Assembly: GCF_024502345.1 (NCBI RefSeq)
Contig: NZ_JALDNN010000001.1
DNA from: Escherichia coli
Lineage (GTDB): Bacteria > Pseudomonadota > Gammaproteobacteria > Enterobacterales > Enterobacteriaceae
Length of the DNA stretch: 64,000 bases
Strand: one strand, 5' to 3'
Positions within the stretch are counted from its first letter, which is position 1. Every line of letters begins with the position of its first letter. The notes beneath the pieces were generated by a model, which was given only the letters and a program-made list of their open reading frames with translations, ran no database searches and was not told the DNA's origin. This document shows, piece by piece, positions 28,510 through 29,267 of this stretch. The translations under genes were made by a program, and so were the position numbers.

Positions 28510-29267
28510 TTTCACCGAGTCCGAATCATTCTTGTAACATCCTACACTTTTGTGCTTATTGCCTACAGTGAACCACGAGAATAATTAAAGACATAAGTGT
28601 TCAGATGACGGATATCTCATTAGCAGTGATATAACGTCAGTTTTTGTTCCACTACACATCAGCCCCCTTCACAGCTGATCAATATTGATCACGCTCCAAT
28701 ATGCTGGCGAGAAAAGGACTTACCTGAAGGGTAATATCCCGCAGATAAAGTCCCCGAATAACGTGATTACGTGCGATCCTGGCAAGATGAAAATGATAAC
28801 CAGTAGCACAATAACAACGATAGGCCAGAAAACCCATTGACCAAAAATGAATATCGATGTTTTTTGCTTTTTCTTATTAGTAATGCAAAAATGGCGCATA
28901 TTGTTTTTGTTATGCAGATACATCAAGCGAAAATCCCATAACTAATTAGGATTATTACAAAAAATCTTCACCAAATTTTTTAACCGCTGTTTGTTGTAAT
29001 ATTTTTGCCATATTCATAGTAACGAATTGGAATAAGTAACGACAACTTAGGGAATAACTCGATATAAACTCACCTTTGTAAGGGGGATGTTAAATATATA
29101 TTAATTCCTGTGTTTCTGATTTTGCCCGGTAATAGAGAATTATTCTCATAGCAGCTCATCATGATTGCACCATACAAATATCATGATGATAAGAGGATAT
29201 TATTCATTGACTTAAACAAAATGACAAAATCCATAGACCCATAGCCTGGGTACTATATAGGAGTGGT

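Follow-up and report, generated by a model that had tools for sequence, protein, structure and literature searches.

The AT-rich ychF–ycgV spacer of Escherichia coli is a described promoter island in accessory DNA and carries a minus-strand reading frame that is most likely not a gene

Open reading frames with transmembrane propensity that arise from T-rich non-genic sequence, the so-called proto-genes, are known from the eukaryotic de novo gene literature. The type I toxins include Ldr, Hok, TisB, ShoB and Ibs, and the Ldr, Hok and Ibs families are multi-copy and conserved across genera. Small membrane proteins of E. coli were reportedly validated by Hemm and co-workers in 2008. The IS6/IS26 insertion elements are about 820 bp long, end in 14-bp terminal repeats and encode one DDE transposase of about 234 aa.

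For E. coli K-12, 78 'promoter islands' have been published, among them entry 1255333_301, which is 301 bp long and is listed as ycgV(-)ychF(-) (Panyukov & Ozoline 2013, PMC3661553, Table 1). Promoter islands are H-NS-bound AT-rich regions adjoining horizontally acquired genes (PMC3661553; Purtov et al. 2020, PMC7054387), and are described as transcriptionally silent, their transcripts being abortive or very scarce, and as promoter-like on either strand (PMC3661553). Island 1255333_301 was scored as H-NS-bound in every ChIP data set compared (H column 'A') and one predictor linked it to a foreign gene (PMC3661553). For the spacer between ycgV and ychF, genomic SELEX has also yielded a peak of RNA polymerase holoenzyme (PMC5493296). 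YbdO, a regulator of the LysR type, repressed ycgV in an APEC strain and retarded a 126-bp 'ycgV promoter' fragment in EMSA (PMC11681634).

The ychF–ycgV spacer and its neighbourhood

The DNA analysed is a 64,000-nt stretch of the E. coli chromosome, referred to here as the window. The closest complete genome is that of the O18ac:H14 strain 873.10, in which the spacer is 99.8% identical and the autotransporter gene is labelled ycgV and recorded as a pseudogene with an internal stop (PGAP note). The gene order in the window is pth (26632-27216), ychF (27333-28424, + strand), an 843-bp spacer (28425-29267), the autotransporter gene on the + strand, and dhaR on the minus strand (Table 1). The codon that has become a stop in ycgV of this strain is TGG in 9 of the 9 other alleles compared. 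The original prediction of roughly 750 bp of markedly AT-rich DNA in front of the autotransporter gene was borne out, as the flagged 758 bp has 35.9% GC against 50.8% for the whole window, and the 800-bp bin at 28801-29600 (GC 0.370) is the minimum of the 64 kb.

Table 1. Coordinates of the features discussed, in window positions
Feature	Position	Strand	Remarks
ychF 3' flank, conserved	28425-28513	+	last part common to lineages with other islands
Hairpin in ychF 3' flank	28438-28463		inverted repeat
ychF terminator hairpin	28481-28506		13-bp perfect stem, A-run before, T-run after
AT-rich spacer as flagged	28510-29267		GC 0.359
Accessory module (AT-rich spacer and ycgV), 3.7 kb	28514-32259		variable ychF-dhaR slot
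IS6/IS26-family transposase gene relic	28672-28834	+	secure core 28738-28803
75-bp deleted segment	28704-28778		flanked by CTGGC direct repeat; in-frame loss removes ORF C-terminus and stop
68-codon ORF	28926->28720	-	TTG at 28926, first ATG at 28923 (68 or 67 codons), TAA at 28722-28720
Equivalent of K-12 promoter island 1255333_301	28810-29110		approximate; includes ORF start codon and 5' part
Equivalent of YbdO-bound 126-bp fragment	29142-29267	+	primers of PMC11681634 mapped onto window sequence
ycgV autotransporter adhesin gene	29268-32153	+	pseudogene in this strain, TGG->TAG at 30381-30383

The K-12 island was placed in the window by way of NC_000913.3 (ycgV at 1253085-1255952; offset of 777 from U00096.2) and an alignment of K-12 with the window. 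As this alignment is collinear here, the island, after correction for the offset, corresponds to the interval given in Table 1. The spacer resembles the published islands in being AT-rich over at least about 300 bp, in having a neighbour gene that is predicted to be foreign and in that its K-12 equivalent is itself listed, and it goes further in that the module is also shown here to be accessory (see below) and has an IS relic inside. It differs from the K-12 island by the long allele, which lacks the 75-bp deletion, and by the ycgV nonsense mutation; nothing essential differs. A perfect 10-nt inverted repeat, TCATCATGAT-N14-ATCATGATGA, lies at 29156-29189 inside the equivalent of the YbdO-bound fragment, and 29156-29210 carries no polymorphism among the alleles compared.

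A sigma-70 consensus scan of the spacer gave 1 site against 4.1 in composition-matched shuffles, so that the promoter excess of the islands was not reproduced with this simple consensus, which we regard as uninformative. The H-NS high-affinity motif TCGATAAATT, allowing up to 2 mismatches, showed no enrichment in either window or spacer, and this test was uninformative as well. The idea of an involvement of GATC sites and Dam was dropped, there being just three GATC sites, all at least 490 bp upstream of ycgV. Since an A-run precedes and a T-run follows its stem, the ychF terminator hairpin is potentially bidirectional. At a permissive threshold, Rfam gave no RNA family for the spacer; two sub-threshold Leu_leader matches fell on the ychF terminator hairpins, and one CrcZ match was noise.

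The original prediction likened the spacer to H-NS-silenced adhesin promoters and named H-NS ChIP data as a check. The K-12 data list the ycgV/ychF island as H-NS-bound in all studies compared (PMC3661553), which supports that reading with evidence from other strains. The spacer is thus an already described H-NS-bound promoter island in accessory DNA, the binding of H-NS and of YbdO being taken from the K-12 and APEC literature, and we infer that silencing would operate in this strain too.

The spacer was present over at least 80% of its length in 4094 of 5426 complete E. coli genomes, whereas about 600 of the 5426, ST131 for example, matched just its first ~80 nt and lack the module. In the comparison with ST131, homology extends to 28513, a little beyond the ychF terminator hairpin, and restarts at 32260, at the dhaR stop; the slot is filled there by an island of about 29 kb with integrases, IS elements, an Ec67-family retron reverse transcriptase and an ABC-three-component system, and without ycgV. 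Strains with an identical YchF have other elements at the same ychF-dhaR position (loci L015 and L018), and homology to L015 ends at 28530. Because of the homology breaks against ST131 and the other islands at the same site, the spacer and ycgV are one accessory module in a variable slot. No convincing att-like direct repeats were found at the ends of the ST131 island or of the module, just repeated GAGTACA-type motifs. Among the listed genomes, one IS1 insertion was the only annotated feature under the spacer match. Autotransporters resembling YcgV occur in E. alba and in another assembly with 50-55% identity, at different loci and without a homologous spacer or ORF.

The minus-strand ORF and the transposase relic

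The 68-codon ORF of the original prediction, placed on the minus strand at 28720-28926 with a strongly hydrophobic segment, is present as described, and the segment reads WVFWPIVVIVLLVIIFILPG. The length of the ORF is within chance expectation, frames of at least 68 codons being found in 759 of 2000 (38%) dinucleotide-preserving shuffles of the spacer. The hydrophobic segment is beyond it: just 4 of 2000 shuffled spacers attained its Kyte-Doolittle mean of 2.96 over 19 residues, as did 4-6 of 5000 local shuffles that preserved local base composition alone. The second codon position is T in 16 of 22 codons. Because composition-preserving shuffles rarely give such a segment, AT-richness alone is not its cause. 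Ahead of the ATG, GGGA at 10-nt spacing pairs best with the anti-SD (-4.0 kcal/mol), a pairing similar to that of pth yet equalled or beaten by 19% of the ATGs in the spacer, and the ribosome-binding site is mediocre. Neither the peptide nor its coordinates had an entry in the searched part of the Ribo-seq supplements, which is not evidence of absence.

Beneath the 3' part of the ORF, the plus strand carries the remains of a transposase gene. The secure core is identical at 55 of 66 nt (83%) to plasmid IS6-family transposase genes (E=5e-9; blastn in distant mode against 7.3 Gb of plasmids), with matches in Serratia, Pantoea, Enterobacter and Salmonella; on the Serratia and Pantoea plasmids, the matched genes sit in 819-bp elements with IS26-type terminal repeats. 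The core corresponds to transposase codons ~162-184 in the same orientation as the + strand of the window, and the local DNA alignment scored 77 against 21 +/- 2.4 for shuffled targets (z ~23). In tblastn, transposase residues 164-194 (QIKYRNNVIECDHGKLKRIISATLGFKSMKT), which belong to the catalytic region, aligned with the + strand at 28742-28834 (QIKSPNNVITCDPGKMKMITSSTITTIGQKT) with 17 of 31 residues identical (55%), and a weaker, collinear but frame-shifted match connected residues 133-159 ('INTDKAP...') with 28672-28746. The + strand translation keeps QIK..NNVI.CD.GK.K.I of the catalytic region, with the 'IN.D.AP' piece collinear upstream, and the catalytic E is replaced by T (NNVIECDHG to NNVITCDPG). 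The reading frame is shifted and interrupted by stops, around 60 residues can be recognised, and no ORF with an intact DDE triad is left; compared with the IS6/IS26 elements, a homologous fragment alone is present here, i.e. a relic.

A full IS element was considered and rejected, as the DNA on either side could not be aligned, terminal repeats are absent and 28990-29009 is too poor a candidate for a right end. The 14-bp IS26 terminal inverted repeats (GGCACTGTTGCAAA) had no match within 3 mismatches near the spacer. Pfam gave no match for the + strand relic peptide, and in tblastn of this peptide against plasmids, E<1e-3 was reached just by mis-filed E. coli chromosomal records. In PHROGs, the relic peptide matched one family of unknown function (E=1.9e-4). 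The extent of the relic is uncertain, because the DNA match covers just 66 nt, the flanks are unaligned, Pfam is silent and there are no terminal repeats.

In the antisense frame, the intact elements read VALIILFSLP*SHSITLLRYFIC, and the counterpart in the ORF is VLLVIIFILPGSHVITLFGDFIC; in the longer comparison, AVFMDLNPSVALIILFSLP*SHSITLLRYFICRC of the intact elements stands against WVFWPIVVIVLLVIIFILPGSHVITLFGDFICGI of the ORF. The frame of the ORF is open because the antisense stop of the intact elements is mutated here. Read antisense, a decayed transposase fragment makes up the 3' part of the ORF and with it much of the hydrophobic segment. The opposite-strand coding relic accounts for the codon-like periodicity that shuffles rarely give: the A-first codons of the relic (K/M/I/T/S) appear as hydrophobic NTN codons on the other strand, and AT drift has raised the number of such codons further. 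Against this reading, no origin was found for the 5' half of the ORF, and the transposase DNA match is 66 nt long. The relic of the IS26 family and the derivation of the ORF from its reverse strand seem not to have been described before; both are small additions of a well-known type.

Distribution of the ORF and selection on it

The original prediction proposed checking the conservation of the ORF, and its frame was found only at this locus in E. coli and Shigella, without other relatives. Among 5.8 billion proteins searched by word index, just same-locus variants from Escherichia and Shigella matched, with no Pfam domain; when a profile was run exhaustively with HMMER against 1.84 billion cluster representatives, the 14 proteins that matched all came from the ycgV-ychF locus. 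Scanning 100,044 species genomes (one per species) with two N-terminal peptide patterns gave two matches, in an actinomycete MAG and in a Streptomyces assembly, both on short contigs; they were rejected as contamination with laboratory K-12-type E. coli because both have the 75-bp deletion specific to K-12. Pfam, NCBIfam, PADLOC and PHROGs assigned the ORF to no family and gave weak matches to hydrophobic segments alone (E >= 0.01). A search of the phage collection gave no match. RefSeq annotation of the ORF is absent in all listed genomes, NC_000913.3 included. The pipelines of several submitters labelled it 'membrane protein' or 'hypothetical protein'.

Three forms of the ORF are common: 67 aa as in the window, 84 aa by read-through of the stop (TAA to CAA), and 59 aa by the 75-bp deletion, which is the K-12 allele. 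The 59-aa form, visible as matches of 92-93% coverage, accounted for 13 of 30 (~43%) evenly spaced rows of the matching genome records. Rare frameshifted versions also exist in protein databases. The changes were analysed in 11 alleles and then in 16 distinct haplotypes. The pN/pS ratio was 0.94 for the ORF, compared with 0.01 for ychF and 0.28 for the N-terminal region of ycgV. The 16 haplotypes contained 4 synonymous and 13 nonsynonymous changes and 1 stop-loss, distributed 10/4/4 over the codon positions without an excess at the third. The observed synonymous share of 23.5% fits the 27% expected (p=0.79) under a mutation-only model built from the substitution spectrum of the spacer itself. 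A ycgV-like constraint (omega 0.28) or a stronger one was rejected (P=0.0036), and weak selection (omega ~0.5) was not rejected (P=0.067). The frame was open in 16 of 16 haplotypes; with ~0.9 nonsense changes expected, this is not significant, nor is it evidence for decay. Nucleotide diversity was 0.025 in the ORF, 0.027-0.045 in the rest of the spacer and 0.033-0.040 at synonymous sites of the flanking genes. Within the hydrophobic segment, many changes are conservative exchanges (V/I, L/I). The ORF drifts neutrally, under no detected constraint, and we judge it to be non-functional or at most proto-genic.

These data bear on whether the ORF could encode a young, E. coli-restricted small inner-membrane protein with a basic N-terminus and one transmembrane helix, which arose de novo antisense to the relic and is expressed upon relief from H-NS. 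The frame that stays open in every haplotype and in three common length forms, a hydrophobic segment far above composition expectation, mostly conservative changes within that segment with weak selection at the P value given above, and a common deletion that is in frame would all suit such a protein, as would the weak SD-like GGGA 10 nt before the ATG, the ychF terminator hairpin that could end a minus-strand transcript, and the protein calls by several submitter pipelines. Opposed to these stand the near-unity pN/pS without third-position excess, the third of the protein that is dispensable or replaceable in common alleles, the lack of relatives elsewhere in the protein and species-genome searches, and a periodicity explained by the opposite-strand relic. 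The ORF is moreover absent from the curated K-12 annotation despite several small-protein surveys, and it lies in DNA described as transcriptionally silent (PMC3661553). We consider such a protein quite unlikely. The more specific proposal, a newborn E. coli-specific membrane protein born by antisense stop loss in the decaying IS26-family fragment and translated when silencing is relieved, is likewise improbable, and decidedly so; if true, it would be a traceable case of bacterial de novo gene birth from a mobile-element relic.

Like the validated small membrane proteins and type I toxins, the ORF is small (59-84 aa), intergenic and composed of a basic N-terminus followed by one hydrophobic helix; unlike them, it shows no conservation beyond one E. 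coli locus and no purifying selection, and has no family match, known partner RNA or curated annotation. It might also be viewed as the toxin of a module resembling type I toxin-antitoxin systems, with translation checked by an overlapping antisense RNA, in keeping with the small size, the single hydrophobic helix, the location in accessory AT-rich DNA and the promoter-like potential on both strands described for promoter islands (PMC3661553). No toxin or defence family was matched in Pfam, NCBIfam or PADLOC, however, no antitoxin RNA was found in Rfam, where the sub-threshold matches were terminator-like hairpins, and paralogous copies of the ORF are lacking. With an amino-acid sequence that is unconstrained and a C-terminus that is freely lost or extended, a toxin seems to us hardly credible.

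The diversity values are also relevant to a functional minus-strand non-coding transcript that would diverge from the ycgV promoter region or run antisense to it and would tune ycgV, the ORF being incidental. One minus-strand promoter-like site (29227->29199) has 10 of 12 matches, the hairpin at the end of ychF could terminate minus-strand transcription, and a 491-nt minus-strand stretch folds somewhat better than its shuffles (z=-2.5), although this z-score takes in the terminator hairpin. Because diversity across the spacer (0.025-0.045) is at or near the flanking synonymous level, there is no sign of sequence constraint; no Rfam family was matched, and the published islands show abortive or very low transcription (PMC3661553). 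We therefore regard a functional transcript of this kind as very unlikely.

The ORF shares with proto-genes an open frame, a predicted transmembrane segment, an origin in ex-genic antisense AT-rich DNA, restriction to one lineage and near-neutral evolution. It differs from them in that its hydrophobicity derives from the periodicity of an opposite-strand coding relic and not from T-richness alone.

Function of the spacer and meaning of the ORF

Taken together, the stretch is probably the upstream DNA of ycgV, an accessory adhesin gene, in a silenced state, with the ORF as a by-product that has no maintained function and now drifts neutrally. Coated by H-NS, the spacer would serve both as the platform that silences ycgV and as its promoter region, and a segment for regulator binding would lie directly before the start of ycgV. 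We infer that the ORF is translated to no functional end, and it is most likely not a gene.

The original prediction had left open whether the ORF was a small membrane protein or a by-product of AT-rich sequence. Our results favour the by-product and speak against the membrane protein, the ORF being confined to E. coli, with neutral substitutions and a variable C-terminus; AT-richness by itself does not hold as the cause. It had also held that a frame not conserved in close relatives, without a ribosome-binding site or translation evidence, would count against the protein. This largely applies: the frame is not conserved in relatives, and the ribosome-binding site is a mediocre one that 19% of spacer ATGs match or surpass in quality. 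The spacer is known as a promoter island, and databases list the ORF here and there under the names 'hypothetical' or 'membrane' protein.

The significance of the finding is small overall, and its main use is to prevent mis-annotation, in that the 'membrane protein' label for the ORF should not spread. The transposase relic and the sharp edges of the module lend modest support to an arrival of ycgV and its silenced upstream region as foreign DNA at a recombination hot spot beside ychF. The ORF is an example of a hydrophobic, codon-periodic reading frame that is the mirror image of an old coding sequence, one which passes composition nulls and fails evolutionary tests.

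The ychF–dhaR interval

The interval between ychF and dhaR, bounded in the present strain by the edges of the accessory module that carries the spacer and ycgV, is a hot spot for integration or replacement. An island of approximately 29 kb occupies it in the ST131 genome (L026, NZ_CP103508.1 2723000-2772000), and the comparison of the slot, which also took in loci L015 and L018, revealed a DUF5906-primase/AlpA element in another strain, beginning directly at the stop codon of ychF. Motifs of the GAGTACA type recur on the flanks of the ST131 island, but a clear att core repeat was not detected.

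Two loci assigned to actinomycetes, L012 (JAEWQO010000123.1, 'Actinomycetes bacterium' MAG) and L013 (NZ_JARVKW010000136.1, 'Streptomyces sp. DH24', coverage 0.84), consisted of K-12-type E. coli sequence in the order dauA-ychH-pth-ychF-ycgV with the K-12 75-bp deletion. These contigs are contamination of public actinomycete assemblies.

Features of the spacer, ycgV and the ychF–dhaR slot
Feature	Window position	Sequence or content	Distance upstream of ycgV
Module edges	28513/28514, 32259/32260		
ychF-proximal stretch	28510-28719	indels at 28600, 28648, 28662	
Palindrome in relic	28676-28691	perfect, 16 bp, TGATCAATATTGATCA	~580 bp
ORF codon 34	28822-28824	CCT	
Inverted repeat	29156-29189	perfect, 10-nt arms, TCATCATGAT-N14-ATCATGATGA	79-112 nt from ATG
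ycgV codon 372	30381-30383	TGG->TAG	
ST131 island		two tyrosine recombinases; IS3/IS66/IS91 pieces; Ec67-family retron RT; ABC-three-component system; DUF2339/DUF3999 genes	

Polymorphism and palindromes in the spacer

The ychF-proximal stretch, which contains several small indels, was the most polymorphic part of the spacer, and its pi of 0.045 slightly exceeded the synonymous diversity of ychF (0.040). Codon 34 of the minus-strand ORF showed three distinct substitutions (P->L, P->H and P->S) among 16 haplotypes, either by chance or perhaps because mutations are locally frequent there.

The palindrome in the decayed transposase relic includes two GATC (Dam) sites lying 10 bp apart; in K-12, a T->A change at 28683 makes it imperfect. 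It may be a chance product, since it lies within the 'INIDHAP' part of the relic, where the resemblance to a transposase is weak. The inverted repeat closer to ycgV, both arms of which contain the palindrome ATCATGAT, was invariant in all alleles compared and falls within the equivalent of the EMSA fragment shifted by the LysR-type regulator YbdO (PMC11681634). It is a candidate operator.

State of ycgV

In L020 (GCA_012013005.1, contig AARKYU010000026.1), a deletion fuses position ~30898, within ycgV, to position ~34053, close to the start of dhaR, removing the 3′ part of ycgV and almost the entire dhaR.

The nonsense change at codon 372 is shared by the present strain and its closest relative, the O18ac:H14 strain 873.10, and TGG is kept in the nine other alleles compared. 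Because of this TAG codon, ycgV, the adhesin gene under control of the spacer, is a pseudogene in the present strain.
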